Source: Podarcis vaucheri (lineage: Eukaryota). Taken from it: a DNA stretch of 64,000 nucleotides. The notes beneath the pieces are model-generated. The model saw only the letters and a list, made by a program, of their open reading frames with translations, did not search any database and was not told where the DNA came from. Numbering within the stretch: the first letter of the stretch is position 1; every line of letters starts with the position of its first letter. This document shows positions 40,282 to 64,000 of this stretch, piece after piece. Both the position numbers and the translations under genes were made by a program. The stretch lies in the NCBI GenBank assembly GCA_965113315.1, contig OZ220363.1; one strand, 5' to 3'.

Positions 40282-41105
<824 letters not shown>

Positions 41106-51851: not shown

Positions 51852-52109
51852 AATATATTTATTAATCTGCCATGCCTCTGGTAATTATATAGCTACAGTA
51901 TTATAAACAAAAGCCCTTTGTATCACTTCAGGAAGAAAACGCAGCTCAGGCTTTCAGCAGGAAATAATTCAAAGTAAGCTTTTTTTTTTATGGCTTGAAA
52001 GCACCCAACTGCAGCGAAGGACAAGGACCTTAGCTTGCATACGTAAACACTGTGCACAAGGAGAGCCCGGCAGCTGCTCTGGATGAATTAGCCTGGCAGA
52101 GAAGCATGG

Positions 52110-52870
52110 TTTGTATCCCCGCCCGCACTGACGTCCTGAAATGGCGCAATCGCCATTCGCGAGAGCCGATTGCCTAAGCTCTCTCCCTCGGAAGGACAAC
52201 ACCTCCCGGCCTGCCTCTCTACCAAGCCCCGCTCTCCACAAGGCCCCTTCGCGACGGCAGCCGCCTACAACTCCCAAGCGGGGCAGCGGACCCTCCATTC
52301 GCGTCCAGCAAAGGCGTTCAAACCGCGGCCTCTGGCGCGTTGCCTTCTGGGAGTCGCAGTCCGCAAGCCGGTTGGAGAGAAAGGGGGCTTTGCGCAGTCG
52401 CAGCCGCCTTCTCCGCGGCTCCTCCTCAGGGAAGTAGCGCCGCCATTTTCTCTGGCGGACTGAAGCGAGCGTCGCGTCCGCACACGGGAGGTAAGCGAGT
52501 TTCGTTGGACGCTGGCACCGCCGGCGAGTGCGCGGTTTTCCTCACCCGGGAGAGGGGCCGAGCCGGAGCAGGGGCGGGTGGGAGAGCGAGGCGGCCTGTG
52601 GCGTCGGGGAATAAGAGCCAGCGGGCTCCGTTTTATCTGCTGTGGTAAACGGAGCGGAGCCAGGCTGCGAGGCCGAAGCTCCGCCTTGCCTGGGCCCTGC
52701 GCGGCGCCCGTTCCCTGCATTGGGTCCCGGGTGAGGACTCCCTCTCCCCACATCCCCCCCCCCAGGCGCCCCCTCGTCTTCGTCTCCACTTCTGTCGAGC
52801 ATCTGCCGTTAACACTCTCGTTCTTTTCCCCTTCCCTTTTCCCTCCCTGCCTTCTGCTCCCGAACCGCTT
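52110..52870 (+). promoter_or_regulatory. CpG-island, TATA-less promoter of the SRSF5-like gene
   Basis: GC/CpG-rich; GC box 52117-52124, TGACGTC 52129-52135, ZNF143-like motifs 52265-52277 (+) and 52347-52360 (-), YY1 CCGCCATTTT 52440-52449. Confidence 0.88.
52430..52490 (+). other. SRSF5A: Probable non-coding exon 1 of the SRSF5-like gene (start approximate)
   Basis: YY1 initiator-type motif followed by strong donor GAG|GTAAGC at 52490/52491. Confidence 0.7.
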
Positions 52871-52884
52871 TTGCATCCCTCCAG

Positions 52885-52942
52885 ATCGGGCCTTGCAAGC
52901 GCATCTCAGCAGCCGAACTTTTCATCCATTTCCACTCAAAAG
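52885..52942 (+). other. SRSF5A: Candidate additional 5' UTR exon (58 nt)
   Basis: About 70-nt pyrimidine tract + CCAG| ... AAG|GTAATG; contains no ATG. Confidence 0.5.
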
Positions 52943-53542
52943 GTAATGATTGAGACGGACGATGAAGGAGCAGATTTGTTTTTGTTTTTGACCCTCCTCA
53001 CGATCTCTCTCTCTCTCTCTGGACATTTATATTTTTGTGTGCACGCGAAAATGTCTTTATTATTCCGCCCCTGTTTTTTTTGGTAGGTATGTCATGAAAA
53101 GGAGGCTGAACGGCCTCTGATGCAGAAACATCATGAATCCTAAACTTGTTATCTGCTAAGGTGTTGCCTTATCTACTACCAGCTTCTTTTGGTGGAGCGT
53201 AGTGGCTTTTGACTTACACAAGAGCTCAGTTTGAAGGGTTTCTATGCTCCCAACACCAGTGGGAGTTGGCGCCAAGTGAGAGATGGTTTTAATTATTTAT
53301 TTCTATGCAGTGGATGTTTGACTACGTTTTGAGAGTGTGCATTGGGTACATTTGTGATAAAACTATACTCTAAAGTTGTTTGCATCTATATTGGCATGAT
53401 ATAGTGTTTTAAGAAATATGTTTTAAACACTGTCCTCAGTTGTCTCTTCTGTCCAACATCTGTGGGACTGAATTTTAGTAATGATATAATAAAATACCTA
53501 ACGTGAACACAAAAACTTAATTTTTTTGCAGCTTAGGCTAAA

Positions 53543-53668
53543 ATGAGTGGCTGTCGTGTCTTCGTTGGACGTCTAAGTCCACATGCTCGGGAGCGAGATG
53601 TGGAGAAATTTTTCAAGGGATATGGCCGTATACGTGAAATCAATCTGAAAAACGGCTTTGGTTTTGTG
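53543..53668 (+). CDS. SRSF5A: SRSF5-family splicing factor (srsf5a-type) first coding exon, RRM1 (MSGCRVFVGRLSPHARERDVEKFFKGYGRIREINLKNGFGFV)
   Basis: Acceptor at 53530-53531, ATG 53543, donor GTG|GTAGGT; RNP2/RNP1 motifs. Family certain; the a-type assignment is from recalled sequences. Confidence 0.92.
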
Positions 53669-56600
53669 GTAGGTATATGCGTATTTAAATATTTCCCTCC
53701 CAATCTAGATGACTGTAGGCAGTTACATTGTAACATACAAATCACAGGAAATCTGATTAAGCAAAATATCAGAAATGTTAAACTTCCATCTTCTCTTTAA
53801 CCTTTTAGATCTTTCTGTAAATGGCTCTTAATATGTGCAAACTTCCTCTTTGAAATTGCTAATATGGTAAAATGGAAGGCTGCTTTTTAGGTAAGAATGA
53901 AATAAATTAGCTTTGCAAATAATCATAGCCGTAGGTTGTATATGCCATGGTTCCCTCACCTGAGCCTCTCCCTCCAACCCAACATTTCTCTCTGCTGCCA
54001 TTACATTTTCCTTCCTCCCCCAAACTCGCAATAAAAATAAAAATATGGAACTTAAACTTAAGGTAAATACTCAGGATGGTTGGTTAACGCTCAAAGTTTT
54101 AAGTCGGGGAAGGAAGGGGAAAACTGACAGCTTTCTTAATAGAGGTGAACTAGCCAGGTTTGTGTGGTTCTCTTTTTGTACTGGAATTCTCTGTTACACG
54201 TACAAAACCAAGAGAGCATACTCTGAACACAAATTACTTACATCTTGAGGGATTCTTAGTATTCAGAAATTCCAGCAACCATTAGGTGATCCTTCTTTCA
54301 ATGAGAAAGAAGCCAGCCAGTTCTGCTTAGGTGGGAAGCACAACAGGTTTGGTGGGACTCGTGTCGTCTTTCTGACCCATGCTATCAAGCAAGAGGAGAG
54401 AGGAACACAGAAGGAAAAGCAGCAGTCTTCTTTTCTGTATTTGCCTATCCAAGCAAACTCAGTGGGGCTGTGGGGACTTGCATTTTCTCTTCTCTTGCTA
54501 GGCAAGCTAGGCAACTTGCCCCTTTGCATCTGCCTAGCTGGGGTAAAGGATACTTGGATTCTTTCTTCCTCTCTCTGAAATAGACAGATAGGGAACAAAA
54601 GTCCACCCAACTAGTGCACATCCTACCAAACAGGATGTTAAAGTTCCATTTTGGGGGCAGCATGTGTGACTTTATTCCCCCACTCAACAAGCAGGAGACA
54701 GGGAACCTAGCTTGCAGCTGTTTTTCCTATGCAGGAGGGGAGAGAAGTAGTTCCATGTGCCACCTCCAAAATGAGACCTAAACTGAGCAGAAATCTTTTC
54801 TGCAAGGCAGGAAGTTGAATCCCACAGATGGGGTCTTCAGAGCTCATGAACAGTGTTAGAAACTGAGATGTGAAAGCTAGGAGTTAAATGGCACCTTAAG
54901 CCTAAGGTTATGGGTGCCACAACAGAATGTCTAGATAGGTGTTTTTTATACAAAGCTGGAAATTAATGAACTGCAGCAAAAAAATCATATATTCATTTTC
55001 CATATGGTTTCATCCTCATCTGAAGACTGCAAAAAACAAAGCTATACTTCCTGCCCGCCCTCCTAATATTCTTATTTGGGTCACTCCAGTCTTCAGAGAG
55101 TGGCTGGAAGTGGGGAGACAGAAAAAGGTCTTCCTTTCTTTCCACTTTGCAGACAAGCCCTGGATTCTTCCTACACCCCCTTTCCTTCATATAAATAAAT
55201 CTTTTTGGCTCCACAATTAGCACACATTACAGGCCTATACAACTGATGGCAGAGACACCCACCTTGAGTGTCCAGTTCACAAACCTAAGACTTCATTGTC
55301 TTTCAATGATCCCACTCCAAAATTGGTTTCGATTTTAAGCATCACTGTGAGAGAGTGAGGTAGATAACACTTTAAAATGCACTACTTAAACCAAACCTAT
55401 TTAAATCAATCTGAGGCTATAAAGTGCAAAACTGCCTTTCTGTAAGGCCAGCTGAGGTGGAACCTCTCAGCTTTCCTGTATTGATCTCTTGGAAGTCCAG
55501 CAGGGAGGATTTTCTCCTCCCATGCCCTCAGTCCCAGCAGCGGCAGTTTTAATCTTAAATATTAGGTGCAGCACTGCACCCAGATCTCAGAAACTGCTCA
55601 TACTAATGAAATTCCCTGTTGCAAAACGTGCCTAGAACAACGGGAGTTTTGAACGCTGCTTATGGAGGTTGCATACGTAGGCTGCGTTTACCCATCACAA
55701 TAAGCAAGGGTTGATGGATTATAATGGTATACTGTGAATGTGCACTGTGCTGGTACCTGCAGCCTGATGTCTCCCACTTCACTTATCTCTTGACATGATA
55801 GAGAAAGGGAAAACCAGGAAGCTGCAGTTGTTGTGACTTCAGATATGGGATCCTGATTTGTTGTTCCCAAACAAGCCAGCATCACTGCAAGCCTTTATTG
55901 GCTTGCAGATCCTGACTTGTTTGGGAACTACAAACCAAGGTCTCTAGTTAGATATCACAGAAAGCCAAGCCTATCTTACAGCTTCATGGGTTACTTCTCC
56001 ACTCACATCAGGAAAAGCAGTCAGGCTTAATGTACCACCACATTGCTTGCTCACCATGAATCATAAGCAAATCTGGCTTCTTGTGGGAACATTGACATGG
56101 TTGTCTTGCCTGGAGGCAATATTTACTTGCCCCAGGTGAGTGGTCATTTTTCTTTTGACTTACACCATCTTCATCACTAGATTTGCCCATATTTTCTTTT
56201 GACCATAAGTCTAAATCACAGCAGCAAACAGCAGAACTAATGCTTTATTCAACCTGCATGCCATTATGCAGAATGCACAGTTCTCCAAAGCTTGCCAATT
56301 AACTTCAGGCATAGGTGGATGAAGTGGGAAGCATAGGAAAATATCAGGTGTTTTTGTAGTCCCAGACCACTCTGTTAGGCAGCTGTAGCATATTGTGTGA
56401 GGCTGTTTGGTCTGAAGACTGATAGGAATTCATCACTAAACCACTTCTCATCCTGTGTGATTTGACAGCATGACATGACAGCATAGGCGTGCATGCTGCT
56501 GGACACAGTCATGAGTCCATTCTCATAATAGCACATCATTTCACCTGTATTTGGCAGATTCCTATATAACGAACTTTCATTGTACAATGGCATGAGATGT

Positions 56601-57272
56601 TACAGTAGAGGCAAGCATTCTACTGTATTAGGTGTTGGTGGTCTTCTATTTTATGTTTTATTGTTTTTCTTATTTAAAATATTTCTACCCTTCCCTATAT
56701 TTAAATATTTCTTTTAGACTACAGAGCAGACACATGTAGGCTAGTTGAACTAATGTTCCACAAATGCCTAAGCAAATAGATGTTTTAGAAATTTAATGGT
56801 TAAGTAGGTAAGTTTTAATTTGTTATTGAAATGAGTCAGTAGCTTCTGTACCTCAGGGGGGAGGGCATTCCTGACAAGACCCATTGCCATGTTGCCACAG
56901 AAAAGTATCTCCTGCCAGAGGAACACGTAATATGAACTTCAAGCATGGGCAGGCTGGTTTAGGGAGAGATGACCCTCTTTTAATTAGTTTCCAAGTTAGG
57001 GTTTACAATTATTGTTAACTTTCTCACATATTCAGTACTCTTGTGCTGATATATACAAGTTGGGTCCAATACATCTTTACTACCACCTGAGCATGTATAG
57101 CTTAGTCCACTTACTGAGATCATCTGGAAGAGCATTGTTGATTGTCCTCTGTGTTACAGAGTCATGACTGTAATAAGCTGGAAAAAGGAATGGAAAAAAT
57201 CCCCTATTAGGGCAATAAGATTTCACTCTTAAAGAACTGAATACATGATTCATTCCTTCTTTTCCTTCTTAG

Positions 57273-57343
57273 GAATTTGAGGATCACAGAGATGCAGATG
57301 ATGCTGTTTATGAACTGAATGGTAAAGAACTGTGTAATGAAAG
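57273..57343 (+). CDS. SRSF5A: SRSF5-like coding exon 2 (EFEDHRDADDAVYELNGKELCNER)
   Basis: ttag| ... |gtaatc, 71 bp; EFEDxRDAxDAV SR-family signature. Confidence 0.95.
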
Positions 57344-57360
57344 GTAATCTTTAATTATCG

Positions 57361-57415
57361 TAGAATTGTAGGGTTGGAAGGGACCCTGAGGGCCATCTAG
57401 TCCAATCCCCTGCAA
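57361..57415 (-). mobile_element. CR1-type 3' tail fragment (LINE or CR1-mobilised SINE)
   Basis: TAGAATTGTAGGGTTGGAAGGGACCCTGAGG..CTAGTCCAATCCCCTGCAA is the reverse complement of the tail at 12057-12112. Confidence 0.75.
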
Positions 57416-58960
57416 AGCACACAACTAATTGCAGATAAATTGCAATTATGTCTGCCGCAAGTAAATTGAATGGTCTGCTGCATTTGATTTTTAAAAAATC
57501 TCTAGTGTGCTGCTTGTGGGCGCAGAAGGCTGGTAGCAGATCAGGATGCAGGATTACCGCCTTACTTTTTCAACTGCTTTCTTTGAAACTGAAGAGCAGA
57601 AAAACTGGTGCCTACTGTTAACAAAAGAGACCTCACAAGAAATAGGGCTTCCTTTGTTTTTGGCAGATTACTAACATCTGTTAATCCTAGATTTGACTCC
57701 CTATATTGATCAGAGCATTCTAATTTGTGTAGTTTGTAAACCTACCAAATATACAGTGTTTTGTCAGGGGCAACTTACCCTTTCTATCTTCTATGCCTAT
57801 TCAGTCTACATATATGCCTTACTGAGAACCTAAAAGGTTATATATTTCATTTTTTCAACAGAGGCAAGGGGAAAGTTTGCACTCAATAAAATACTTTTTT
57901 TCAGCTTCTCAAGAGTGGAACTGGTTTTCCATATGTTGTAGTTTGACCTCTGCACATCTTTGGGTTTGTTTTATGGCTGACAGCTACCAGCAGCTTCATT
58001 CATTTAACTCAGTCTTTAAATACCTTCTAGAGTCAGTTCTTGATAAAAGGGAGGAGTTTTGCAAAAGTCTTAATTTGCACAACATCCTTTTCTCCCCCAT
58101 GAAACTATATTCCTGGGCATCATATGTAATTTACCAAAAGCAACTGGACTAAAATTACTATTGTAATTTCAGAAATAAAGTCATTCTAAGATTTTTCTGT
58201 TTTACTGAGTTTTCTAGTATTTGTATTAAATCTACATTGCAAACTTTAAAGAAATACAGGCATCCATAATTCACTTGCCAGGAACTCTTTGCCAAGATGC
58301 CCAGCAGTGTGCATGCATATGCCCACTCTTCCTAAACTCATTTGCACTACAGGTTGGAGAAGGTAAGAAATAGGGATATTTTCATGTGCAAGATGTCTTC
58401 CTCCTCCAGACTAGGCAAGCATTAGAGTTTGGGAGGGAGTTGGAGTCTTGCCTGTGTATGCAAAGACTTGGTAAGCTAAGAAGAATCAGGCGTGTCTCTC
58501 CTGCTGCTTCTTAACCATCTTTATTCCCCAGCAGAAATGAGAAAAACACCTGCCACCCCCACCCAGCTCCTTGTATATGCAGGGTTGGTGGTAAGCACAG
58601 CTGTTGCTTTGGCCTTCTCGCTAGCCTCTGTCAACCCCCAAACTAATGCAATTAAAAAGCTGGAAGAAATATGTGATTCTCTCATATTCAGTCATCTTAA
58701 ATTGTGTACAATAGATGGATGTATGAGGAAGTTAAGATTTGGCAAAAATGAGAGGGTTTTTTGGTTACACACGTCTGAATAGACAAATATTTGCTTCTGT
58801 TTTCAAGTACCTCAAAATAGCTACATTTCATTTATAGAAATGCTTGGAGGAAGATGCCTGTTTGCTTTGTGTATGTTTCCAGTAGAAAAAGATGGATGTG
58901 CTAAAGAAGCTATGTATTTTTCATTTAATATTAATATTTCATTTTCGTTTAATATTAAAG

Positions 58961-59053
58961 GGTTACAATTGAACATGCCAGAGCCCGAAGAGGGGGTAGA
59001 GGCAGATACCCACAACGGTTCAATTATTACCAATCCTATGGGGGTGGATCTAG
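58961..59053 (+). CDS. SRSF5A: SRSF5-like coding exon 3 (VTIEHARARRGGRGRYPQRFNYYQSYGGGS)
   Basis: aaag| ... |gtaaga, 93 bp; end of RRM1 plus RG-rich linker. Confidence 0.93.
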
Positions 59054-60009
59054 GTAAGAAATATGTTCTTTTTACTGCAAAGTCACTTGTTAAACAGTTA
59101 ATTTTAGACTATGAACATTCTCCATACACTCAGGATTCTTAACAGTTCACATTTCTAGGGGTAGCTGCATAACATTTTAAGGTGTTCTTAATGAGCTGTG
59201 GTTATTTCCCCTACCTTTCATTACCTTTTTAGTAAGACCAGTACAAGGAATCTTATGCTAACAATCTTTTCATTGAAATTGCTGAATTCCATCTACCACC
59301 TTCAGCTATAAGAAGGAGAGGTGTGTGCTGTTGAAGTCATTAATTATTGCTGCACCTTGCCTAGTGGGTGTATGGTTAGCACTTGATAGCTTTCATGCCC
59401 ATTAATATAATTGTGATGCACAAGTAGTGTACTCTCATGCCAGCAGCCAGAGTTTGTTATAGTTTGGTTTCAGCCTGTAGTACTTTGGTCCTGTACAAGT
59501 CTTACTGAATGGAATGGGCTTTGTGTGACTAGTGCTTAATGGACTGTGCCCCTCTTTGCTTAAACTTTGGCTGGGAGCCTAGGGGACTATAGACAAGAAC
59601 TACTTGTATAAGTTAGTTGTGCTCCAAGGTCAGTAGAACCTACGACAAAGCAAATATGATGTCTACATAGAAGACTCTATAAGGCCAATATTTGTTTGAA
59701 ATACACAGTCATTATAGAATGTATTTCTGTGATGCATGTCGGACAGTATATGTGAGGAAATAGTATTTTAAAATATGTTTCTCTCACATTAAACTATTTC
59801 ACTGTGTCTACTACAAGCTGCTGTTAAGACATCTGTTCATGAAATTGTTTAGACACTGTATTGATAATTGCTTTTAAATAAAATTTGCATTTTTGCATTT
59901 CATTCAGAGGCAGCCTTCTTGCCGTTCTCGTGCTAAACAGAAACCAAACACATTGGAAACTACTAATTTTGCATATTGAAGTATGCTGTTTAGATTCTCT
60001 TTTCTTTAG

Positions 60010-60455
60010 TGCAGTGATGTTGCTGCAGTAAGAGTGATCCAAGGTCGAGGCTAAAAGTGAACTTTACTAAAGTAGGATATGTGACTGACGTTCATGGGCA
60101 TCTTGCATGGTAGTTACGTTCATGACATCAGGCACATGGTGCCAGACAAGAAGAGACTACTATTTCCAGTAGTGAAAAGTGGGACTCGGCCTTCCAGTTG
60201 GGGGATTCTGGAACTTCTTTTAAATGCTCTGAAGATCTGGATATTCTGAAAATGTGGGGCATTTAGAGGTATGCAAATGAAATGGAGTTGCCTCTGCTTA
60301 AATTTCCAAAAGATGCACTTGTTGTTGGTTGAATTTCATATTATATAAAAGAGCCATCATTTGGAGTGGATTTTGGTAGCTAGCCTGAACAAACTAATGT
60401 ATAGTTCTCCAGTTGTTCATACTAGCACTTTATAATATTTTGGGGTTTGATGACA
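60010..60455 (+). other. Candidate poison cassette exon (boundaries tentative)
   Basis: TACTAAT at 59961-59967, pyrimidine tract + TAG (60007-60009), in-frame TAA 60029-60031, donor ACA|GTAAGC 60455/60456. Confidence 0.45.
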
Positions 60456-60970
60456 GTAAGCCAGATCTTTTATTCATGTAAAATTGGGTAGATAGTGCAT
60501 CAGCTCCCACAGCTTATTGAAGTACCATAGTGCTGTAGTAAGCATGCAGTCTCCACAGCCTCATCCTCCTGGGGTGATTCATGCCTGTATGTTCATCATT
60601 TGATGTGTGTTCACAGCATGTAGGGTCTTTGAAAAATGTTATGTTAGGTGATAGCTTTGAAAGCTGTTTATATGCTGGCTGTTGCACACATGGAGGTCAT
60701 TGACTGATGAACACACTTGCGTGAACTGCCCCATAGTCATTTAGTGTGTGTCTTGCAGTTTGTGTATATATTCCACTTGCCTTCCCTATTACAGACAATA
60801 AGCAACTGCCCAGTAGCCTTTCCCCTCATTTAAATAAAACACAGTCAAATTTCTAAAGCATTTTCTGGTTTACTGAGCAATGTGAAGCAATCTGTCCCAG
60901 CATAATGCACTTTCATTTTCCGCATGAAGTATAAATGAACAAATAATGGAAAAATGTGTTTCTCTTGTAG

Positions 60971-61043
60971 CCAGTATGGACCACCTCTTCGTACTGAACA
61001 TAGGCTTATAGTTGAGAATCTTTCTTCACGTGTTAGCTGGCAG
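60971..61043 (+). CDS. SRSF5A: SRSF5-like coding exon 4 ([24 protein letters not shown]); gene continues beyond the window
   Basis: gtag| ... |gtgagt, 73 bp; start of pseudo-RRM2 with SWQ; the DLKD exon is not seen before 64000. Confidence 0.93.
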
Positions 61044-63732
61044 GTGAGTTGGAGTTGACCTTAAATACTTCTTTCTTCTCAAAAACAAGTCGTCCCCTTG
61101 AAGGAGACACCATAAAATTTAACTTTGCAGCTAAAGCAGTCAGAACATTTTTATTAAAACTCAGGCTTAAAGTTCTTTGATTTGCATACCAAAAAATAAG
61201 CATTTAAGCAGCATGTTTTTATTTTTAAAACTGAAGAGCTGATTAGTGTTTCTTGGACAACTATAATCCTCATCTAATAAGAATTGTGAAAAATCTATTT
61301 TAAGACATAATCTTCATAATTAAAGGCATGTCTCAGTGGGAAGGTCTGTAGTTTGTATCTGGCTTCAATAGAATGAACAGAATGACTGCATGGTTAAAAG
61401 AACTCTGTGTTCATAACGCAGGAAATTTTATGTATTACTTAATTCTAAAAGAGGTTTGTGGCTTTCATTGCATAGCTAGTGTGTGTGTTAAATAACATTC
61501 AATATATACATAACTTCACATTTAAGTATTGCCTCTATTTGGTTTCCTTGCAAAGACAATGCTTTTTTACTCTTCCTTAACTGTAAGGGGTACATGACTA
61601 ACATAAACCTGAAAATTTCATGCCACAAATTAGTTTGCTTTTCAGGTGCCCACAGGACCCTTGTCTTAGAACACGAATTTCACATGCAGATTCAAAATAT
61701 TTATGCTGAAATTGGATAAATGAATCCTCACTTTCAATATTTCAGCTTTCTGGCAGCTGTTTCTGACATGTTTTCCATGCAAGTGTGGATGTGCTTGGGT
61801 AGGGAGAAGCCTATGTATACCATCTTGAGTGAAGATTATTCAAGTATTTTACCAGGTGTATACTGGAAAAAGTTGCTATCATTTGCTAGGTGGCACTTAG
61901 TCTGGCAGGTTTGCTATACCAAATAATCCCTGAAGTTCATTTTGATTCTACTCTTTAGCAAGGCAGCAAGTCTTCAAAGTACACCAGCTTCTGTTATCAT
62001 TAGCCAGTGAATCTTTAGCTGCTTCACATACCTTTCATTCTAAATATTTAGTTGTGAAACAAAAAATGAGATTTCATTGAGCCAGTAAAGTAGTGTTAAA
62101 TATAGAATGTATTTTTATTAGATTTATTTATAATAGGTTTAGGCAAGTAGCATATTGTCAACTTAATAATCTGCTTTAAATTAGGTTATGGTAGCCTTCA
62201 TTTTTAATAATATCTATGTGTATATCACTTCCTACAAAGGAGGAATCTGCAAACTAAAGACTTATTTTCTGCTCTTTGGCTTGCATGTATGCTAACATTT
62301 GTTGAGGCCCTGAACAATATTTCACTTATTAACTTCTGGGTATAATGGTTGCATCCACAGTGAAGACTAATTTTTTTTTTTCTTTTTAAAGCTGATTCTG
62401 GTGTCCTGAGTTCTCTTGTAATTTCCTTTTGACTAGTTGCTGTTGTGCTTAAATGAGGGGCAATTATTACCTTGATCTTAGCACTACTGTCATCAGTACA
62501 TGATTTGTCACTTTACCTAACCTCAGTTTTGTCTTCATTTTAATTTGAATTAAATTTCAACATGGGGAATGCCTAGCTTTTTAACAGTGCTCTAAACATG
62601 TGTTCGTCAAACAGGGCTTTCTTTGGAACCCGAAGGAAGAAGGAAAGGGTAGGAACAGGTAAATAATTGCACAGTTCAGGAGCAAGATAGCTGTCAAGAG
62701 AATAATTACAACAAACTATTTAGCATACTGCAAAATAGCCTTAGCTGAAAGTAAAGAAACAGGGCTTAGTAATATAGGAAATAAACCTGAGGCAAGTTAG
62801 CCTTTGTTAGCTGATGTAGTGAACTGTAAGAATAATGAAGAGCTTAGTGTAGGATGGAGAGGTTCACATGGGTGATGAAGGGAAGCCTGGCGTATGCATT
62901 TAGAGTTCTCTATTTGTGTGGAAATACAGAACTCAACAGTTGAGTCCACTGTAGAACAAAATACATATATTGAACTACTTGTGTAATTTGACAGGATTAA
63001 AATTGCTGCCTTTCCAATAAGTTGCGCAGGGCAACCTACAGAGAAGTATAAAACGTGAGATGCATAGGGTACCAGTTTTTCAGTCATTTGACTTATGATC
63101 CTGAAGTCTTTTGATATCAACACAGGACTTTTTCCATAGATCAGCATTACAGACCCCTTTTTGCATTTTAGAAAAGTTTTATAAAATAACTGGGTGGGCC
63201 TGTTGTCTGGCAATTTATTATTAAGTGCCTAAATTTGAACCAGTCTCTCTCACTCATACGAGAGGCATGGGAAGATATAAAGGGAGGAGAGTTAAACACA
63301 CGCGAGTCCCGATACGTAGCATTTGTTTTACAAGTAGCTGTGTGGAATGGCCCACTGGGAAAAATCCTGGGTATGAGTCCAGTGCCACTTATTTTAAAGA
63401 ACTACTCAATTGTATCTAGAGGCCATCTCACTGAGTATTCAGTTTCCAATAGAAGCCAGCCTGATACCTTCATGCCCTGCTTATATATTTCTCAGAGGCA
63501 AAGACACTTATTTTATTCCCAATATCAAAAGTATACTGTCTCTAAACATGAAGGTTCCATCTGTCTACTATGAATAGTCTTTCATTTATTTGGTCCCAGC
63601 CAAGTTTCAGTTGTCATTGGTTATAAATGCATGTCACTTTTGTGACGCTTCATTCTGAGTCTTGTATCTCACAAAATTTCCCAGTACACTTTCTGGTGTT
63701 GGTAAATGCTGTACTTGTATTATCATTTGCAG

Positions 63733-63861
63733 CCATTGGGAAAGCTCATCAGGTCATTTGAGACCAGCATGTATGTGCTCTGGTGGGCTATGTCTAATAC
63801 AGCTACACTGATGTTGCCTGGTGGGTGGGTGTATGATGATGTGGTGTGGTTCTTAATTTAA
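63733..63861 (+). other. Candidate unproductive alternative 3' splice site segment in the intron after SWQ
   Basis: CATTTGCAG|CCA at 63732/63733; phase-0 frame PLGKLIRSFETSMYVLWWAMSNTATLMLPGGWVYDDVVWFLI then TAA 63859-63861. Confidence 0.5.
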
Positions 63862-64000
63862 TGGAAAATTCACTGATGTTCACTGATGTGATAGCACTTC
63901 CATCGCTGCTTTTAGACTGCTGTTTATGAAAAGCAGTTTGTATGAAGGCACTTCAAACCTTGCCTGGCTCTGCAGAGGTGAAATTAAAAATAGCCAGAAC

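Follow-up and report, generated by a model that had tools for sequence, protein, structure and literature searches.

Part of intron 4 of the lizard gene SRSF5a is spliced to exon 5. The donor in use, at position 60268, likely closes a 259-nt cassette exon (60010-60268) that holds a stop codon in frame, and we put at about 0.5 the probability that this exon is a second unproductive-splicing switch of the gene, with an origin of its own in the lineage. The splice event is real but rare; alongside the known switch, it probably marks a poison exon that is new but belongs to a well-known class.

The window is a stretch of 64,000 nt of Podarcis vaucheri (GCA_965113315.1, contig OZ220363.1), and all positions are counted from its start. 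The host gene, on the + strand, is the paralogue of SRSF5 found in non-mammalian vertebrates, SRSF5a. The coding part of its first coding exon (53543-53668), which has GT/AG ends and an open frame, encodes 42 residues at the start of RRM1; these match SRSF5a and SRSF5-like-named proteins from fish to reptiles at 93-100% (120 best of 198 matches). Exon 3 (57273-57343), also part of RRM1, was placed by exon mapping, and loose RNA read ends agree with its 3' end. Exon 4 (58961-59053) encodes the end of RRM1 and the linker and is joined by reads to exon 5 (60971-61043), which encodes QYGPP...SWQ and was placed by RNA joints and exon mapping. Between them lies intron 4 (59054-60970), a phase-2 intron in the same place as intron 4 of SRSF5; it measures 1917 nt, versus 113 nt in the SRSF5 of the same genome. 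Intron 5 (61044-64000 in the window) holds the SRSF5-type alternative acceptor; the window contains only its 5' half, as the whole intron measures 5743 nt, and three further coding exons lie beyond the window end. The translation agrees by eye with the lizard protein P0122. A possible extra 5' non-coding exon (52886-52942) follows the CpG-rich first exon and precedes the first coding exon; judged from the sequence only, it has a pyrimidine tract and CAG before it and AAG|GTAATG after it. Upstream of SRSF5a is a gene recognised in ORF translations, presumably alpha-actinin-like, with exons on the + strand at about 3500-45700. Two of its EF-hand-like exons near 40282-40731 may be a mutually exclusive pair, an arrangement known for the alpha-actinin family.

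The comparison genes were taken from the same genome. Those we take to be SRSF4 and SRSF6, by protein features, lie on other contigs, and what we take to be SRSF5 proper, by such features and protein matches, lies 585 kb from SRSF5a on the same contig. Five of the six intron positions of SRSF5a fall in the same column and phase as in SRSF5, and the sixth is one column off with the same phase. A tree was built from 31 rows and 163 columns, with a single SRSF4 and a single SRSF6 row and the long branch of unnamed outgroups as root; one fish row and 12 of 24 metagenome loci without an extractable core were omitted, as were three near-copies. In this tree the SRSF5a protein groups with SRSF5a and SRSF5-like-named proteins, sister to a tuatara row at 99/96, and SRSF5a and SRSF5 are grouped at 81/96 (not starred). 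A clade of SRSF5a with SRSF4/6 was rejected (p-AU 0.034). The YGPP motif is no link to SRSF4/6, because 11 of the 12 usable metagenome outgroup rows also carry it. In chicken, SRSF5a lies about 430 kb from SRSF5, as given in Table S1 of PMC4379411.

The RNA came from a close relative of the window's organism, in four raw runs; of the words sampled in the relative's DNA runs, about 80% are shared. Two runs are single-cell and two are bulk (X23 and X24, from one study); 6-12% of each was read and mapped from 58701 to 10 kb downstream, and a joint was listed only with at least 3 reads. The normal joint 59053->60971 was covered by 117, 173, 113, and 114 reads in the four runs, and another 12 reads show an allele at the last base. 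Of the X24 reads, 11 have a different letter at 59053, the last base of exon 4 adjoining the donor, which is probably an allele changing the split codon. The joint 60268->60971, with GT..AG ends, was covered by 0, 0, 3, and 2 reads, all from one study of the relative rather than the window's organism; the 3 reads in X23 have 3 starts and the 2 reads in X24 have 2 starts. This amounts to 5 of 243 bulk junction reads (about 2%) versus 0 of 291 single-cell reads (Fisher p 0.019), a comparison in which library type is confounded with tissue. Because these reads join 60268 to 60971, the donor in use is GAG|GTATGC (60269-60274). The preliminary description had proposed another donor, ACA|GTAAGC (60456-60461). 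That motif is present at its place after 60455, but no joint from 60455 was listed in the four runs at the 3-read floor, and the reads use 60268 instead.

The most likely acceptor of the exon is the pyrimidine tract and AG at 59994-60009, as suggested by tract composition; the alternatives end at 59907, 59993, and 60014. The tract has 15 pyrimidines in 18 positions, 12 of them T, and is the most T-rich of the 8 acceptor sites listed. The acceptors ending at 59907, 59993, and 60009, the sequence blocks at 60047, 60277, and 60408, and the branch-point-like heptamer TACTAAT (59961-59967) were all found where they had first been described. The heptamer is a candidate only: TACTAAT has 13 copies in the 64-kb window, both strands counted. 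Folding of 59930-60030, run with no shuffle control, placed it in a loop and not in a stem. The GC content of 60010-60268 is 0.44, and that of the flanks 0.36 and 0.38. Joints into an acceptor upstream of 60268, including the proposed junctions 59053->59908, 59053->59994, and 59053->60010, were looked for and none was listed in the four runs at the 3-read floor; upstream joints may miss that floor because their reads may be divided among four close acceptors.

The stop codons first described are also correct. Acceptors 59907 and 60009 lead to TAA at 60029-60031, 237 nt before the used donor, and acceptor 59993 leads to TAG at 60007-60009. For these three acceptors the stop lies 237-259 nt before donor 60268, and for every candidate acceptor the distance is more than 230 nt. 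Nonsense-mediated decay (NMD) acts on stops followed by a junction over 50-55 nt downstream, a distance that the in-frame stop of the candidate exon exceeds. Other natures of the region were considered and rejected. It is not an in-frame coding exon, as the sole stop-free acceptor would give 34 nt and a frameshift. It is not a structured RNA or snoRNA, as the single Rfam match in 52000-64000 (E 0.74) falls outside the candidate region. No tandem repeats were found in 57000-64000. Searches of the genome with 59850-60500 and 59054-59900 returned the self match only; because the search skips common words, this is no proof of rarity.

The SRSF5-type event after SWQ is also present in the gene, as had been expected from its family. 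Reads connect 61043 with an acceptor that lies 4766 nt inside intron 5 (extended place 65810; G000:C1:49665810), with 2, 3, 0, and 0 reads in the four runs, that is, 5 of 245 reads in the two runs showing it. The DNA behind this acceptor encodes exactly the 22-aa tail of the annotated lizard isoform P0125, and the turtle isoform P0139 agrees with 17 of the 22 residues. The joint is thus the SRSF5-type event, kept in lizard and turtle isoforms. The event is in print for SRSF5a: Table S1 of PMC4379411 gives EST counts for chicken, frog, and zebrafish, a figure legend of PMC5766196 describes only intron-5 isoforms for zebrafish srsf5a, and a passage of PMC7354994 reports a upf1-sensitive srsf5a exon with the intron not named. 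In the bulk runs, depth across intron 5 is higher than across intron 4. Depth is raised from the intron-5 acceptor to exon 6 (L010 7110-8086) and no joint was listed from a candidate donor near L010 7554, therefore the remainder of the intron may be retained in the intron-5 form. Among the letter differences listed between the two organisms, none falls in L010 6540-7669 and many fall elsewhere in intron 5. In the last intron (L010 8670-9420), tandem acceptors 3 nt apart were seen with 1, 4, 2, and 0 reads; the shift shortens the start of the RS domain by one residue, and several reptiles have X1/X2 isoform pairs one residue apart.

Because part of intron 4 is spliced to exon 5, where any such exon would carry a premature stop, and the SRSF5-type intron-5 event is also present, two stop-creating events probably coexist in the gene. 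The preliminary description had proposed that the gene may carry both the SRSF5 and the SRSF4/6 NMD switch. The 60268 joint, the stops, and the intron-5 event support two unproductive events; that the intron-4 exon is of the SRSF4/6 type is not supported.

It is possible, at rather less than even odds, that the joint reflects splicing noise: a cryptic donor of the 1.9-kb intron would be used occasionally, NMD would remove the product, and the event would serve no regulation. Only 5 reads, about 2%, support the joint, a share no higher than that of the tandem acceptor at the last intron (8 reads), and 27 GT sites in intron 4 agree with the donor consensus in at least 6 of its 9 positions. A stop is almost certain to arise by chance: of the 81 AG sites upstream of donor 60268, 80 yield one within the exon, so the in-frame stop is no sign of design. 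Nor do annotated isoforms include the exon among those listed. None of the amniote SRSF5a isoforms listed, a set with 15 of the 37 members of the squamate cluster, stops in the linker, and a motif rule assigned 3 of 120 proteins to the linker-ending class, none from an amniote. Among 12 short candidates there were 2 matches, one an intron-5 form from pigeon and the other a frog model. Against noise, true NMD targets are likewise rare at steady state; the low read share of the 60268 joint fits a decaying form, as does that of the conserved intron-5 joint with its 5 of 245 reads. Moreover, a strong acceptor and a step in GC content lie at an exon-like distance upstream of the donor, and SR genes are, in passages of PMC4379411, the class where such exons are the rule.

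Caecilian and frog SRSF5a models (P0005 and P0015) have 20-23 extra residues, in frame, at the intron-4 position. These inserts matched no frame of lizard intron 4 (scores 17-22), and may reflect either different intron-4 exons or errors of the models. Among the 80 metagenome loci kept (34-71% identity, short), no contig was useful for intron-4 conservation. No intron-4 exon of SRSF5a was found in the literature searched; as most subscription papers and genome-browser annotation were outside its scope, an annotation of the exon as a non-coding isoform may already exist.

The intron-4 exon had been proposed as a candidate of the SRSF4/6 type, and its gene as a possible missing link whose ancestor held both switches. 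Neither proposal is supported, since the exon sits in another intron place and phase, the core of the SRSF4/6 exons is unmatched, the clade with SRSF4/6 is rejected, and a later origin has been published. The host intron is of phase 2, at alignment column 109 and 2 codons before YGPP; intron 2 of SRSF4 and SRSF6 is of phase 1, at column 89 and 12 and 15 codons before YGPP. The linker aligns poorly, so columns 109 and 89 are less firm than the distances to YGPP. None of the 4 mapped SRSF4/6 introns coincides with an SRSF5a intron. Consistent with this, passages of PMC4379411 state that SRSF5 and SRSF4/6 share no intron positions, and that SRSF4/6 gained their exon once they had split from SRSF5, in a vertebrate-specific intron absent from SRSF5. 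The same passages call SRSF6 intron 2 vertebrate-specific and date the split from SRSF5 earlier, in chordates.

Sequence comparison gave a similar picture. The comparison exons were those of the own-genome paralogues only, with bounds read from sequence (SRSF4, 274 nt, L013 9500-9773; SRSF6, 291 nt, L016 1630-1920). Both genes keep a clearly homologous intron-2 poison exon, and the two exons align to each other at z 23-47; EST support for the SRSF4 exon in Table S2 of PMC4379411 is from human and frog only. When the pairwise alignment proposed earlier was run against these exons, the 651-nt candidate region reached z 1.0 at most with either. Of the 173 columns that SRSF4 and SRSF6 conserve, the 259-nt exon matches 64; the background is 61 +/- 9, and a match as good came from 54 of 120 random stretches. 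An nhmmer profile of the two exons gave 11 matches up to E 50, none at the intron-4 exon. Three blocks had been proposed to resemble parts of the human SRSF4 exon. The 8-mer at 60047 does occur in both own-genome exons, at chance level: among 648 tiles of 259 nt, 91 contain one or more of the 39 8-mers that the two exons share. The other two, a 19-nt block (60277) and an 18-nt block (60408), match neither exon; against SRSF4/6 intron 2 their best matches are 12/19 and 12/18, and both lie downstream of the used donor. Homology to SRSF5 intron 4 or intron 5 of the same genome was rejected (z at most 1.5). The comparison with SRSF5a's own intron-5 exon, the sole standout of 34 comparisons, gave z 3.2 (1/200) under one scoring and z 0.2 under another, and we read it as chance.

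A true SRSF4/6 homologue is nevertheless kept as a slim possibility, because a faint, parameter-dependent likeness exists in the first 100 nt and the power of the test is low. This reading would have a deeply diverged homologue beside the ancient intron-5 switch: a chordate ancestor had both, SRSF4/6 underwent an intron shift, one switch was lost in SRSF5 and one in SRSF4/6, and SRSF5a kept both. The lengths are similar (259 nt versus 274 and 291 nt), and the tree permits this history if SRSF5 lost the exon. When 5774 YAG sites were ranked by acceptor-anchored likeness at six lengths, site 60009 ranked 152, 4, 18, 6, 24, and 6 against SRSF4 and SRSF6, and 627-1974 against SRSF5. The intron-5 acceptor mirrors this, ranking 9-109 against SRSF5 and 214 or worse against SRSF4 and SRSF6. 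With cheap gaps, the first 100 nt score z 4.0 against SRSF6 (0 of 500 shuffles), and the values are 2.6 global and 1.2 local with stiff gaps. Against SRSF4 the first 100 nt score from 2.3 to -0.1 by gap setting. The whole exon gives z -0.2 to 2.5 against shuffles. In a control, the position-matched intron-5 exons of SRSF5 and SRSF5a reach z 2.0 at best, so a blank result is weak at this depth. However, the likeness falls to z 1.2 with local stiff gaps and to about zero against SRSF4, the 100-nt tests were shaped after it had been noticed, in a set of 84 comparisons, and 45 YAG sites lie upstream of donor 60268. Together with the absence of a core signal and of a profile match, the chance-level 8-mer, the mismatch of intron places, and the dating in PMC4379411, this makes the first-100-nt likeness a faint lead. 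Convergence of short motifs through binding of, and cross-regulation by, the same SR proteins would account for it equally well. We regard homology to the SRSF4/6 poison exon as unsupported, and an independent origin of the intron-4 exon as the better reading.

Donor 60268 might belong to no cassette: it could serve as the alternative 5' site of a longer exon 4, terminate an internal first exon, or be a decoy slowing intron-4 removal. This is improbable. In its favor, the sole listed joint is the downstream one; against it, upstream reads are perhaps spread over four close acceptors, and depth upstream of 60010 is about 0.9 with the two runs summed, well below the 5 joint reads. Summed bulk depth is 2.1 in the bin with most of the exon versus 0.95 and 0.84 in the two bins upstream; the numbers are small, but the pattern is more like that of a discrete exon than that of intron retained from exon 4 onward. 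A longer exon 4 would also be unproductive, because a TAA stands directly behind the normal donor.

As a cassette exon with a stop, the intron-4 exon could act as follows. Skipping would give full SRSF5a. By analogy with other SR genes, high SR-protein activity may promote inclusion of the weak exon 60010-60268. Translation of the included form would end 7 codons into the exon, after RRM1 and the linker and 237 nt before the next junction. Because this stop lies far upstream of several junctions, the included mRNA is predicted to be degraded by NMD. Poison exons are a well-known class, and the evidence for the present one is 5 reads. If it is regulated, SRSF5a, a little-studied paralogue, would be a further SR gene that gained a decay switch while keeping a billion-year-old one. 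It would also let one ask whether two switches in one gene answer different cues, a question that is approachable here because the two joints appeared in different libraries. Should the likeness to SRSF6 prove true, one would have to revise the model that has SRSF4/6 lose the SRSF5 intron and then invent an exon of their own; likewise, an ancestor with both switches would require revising the published replace-after-duplication model.

The gene is the same as the known SRSF5a of other vertebrates (chicken SRSF5a, frog 'krt5.1', fish srsf5a), with the six intron positions of SRSF5 and a location close to SRSF5. It shares with them the intron-5 alternative acceptor after SWQ (Table S1 of PMC4379411; passages of PMC5766196 and PMC7354994). 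These reports concern the intron-5 event, and an intron-4 stop exon is absent from the passages of the three papers considered here. Like the SRSF4/6 intron-2 exons, the intron-4 exon lies between RRM1 and RRM2, falls in the range of about 260-290 nt, has its stop near the 5' end, and shows one shared 8-mer and the faint likeness in its first 100 nt. It differs from them in the place and phase of its host intron and in lacking the core that aligns SRSF4 with SRSF6 at z 23-47, and its gene belongs with SRSF5. Passages of PMC4379411 describe repeated gain of new poison exons in the family, including two in human SRSF4. Unlike the mammal-specific SRSF4 intron-1 cassettes reported there, which comprise three exons with NMD shown in human cells, the present case concerns another gene and intron, with one exon and predicted NMD. 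Those cassettes are nonetheless its best functional analogue, being a later gain by an SR gene that had one unproductive event before.
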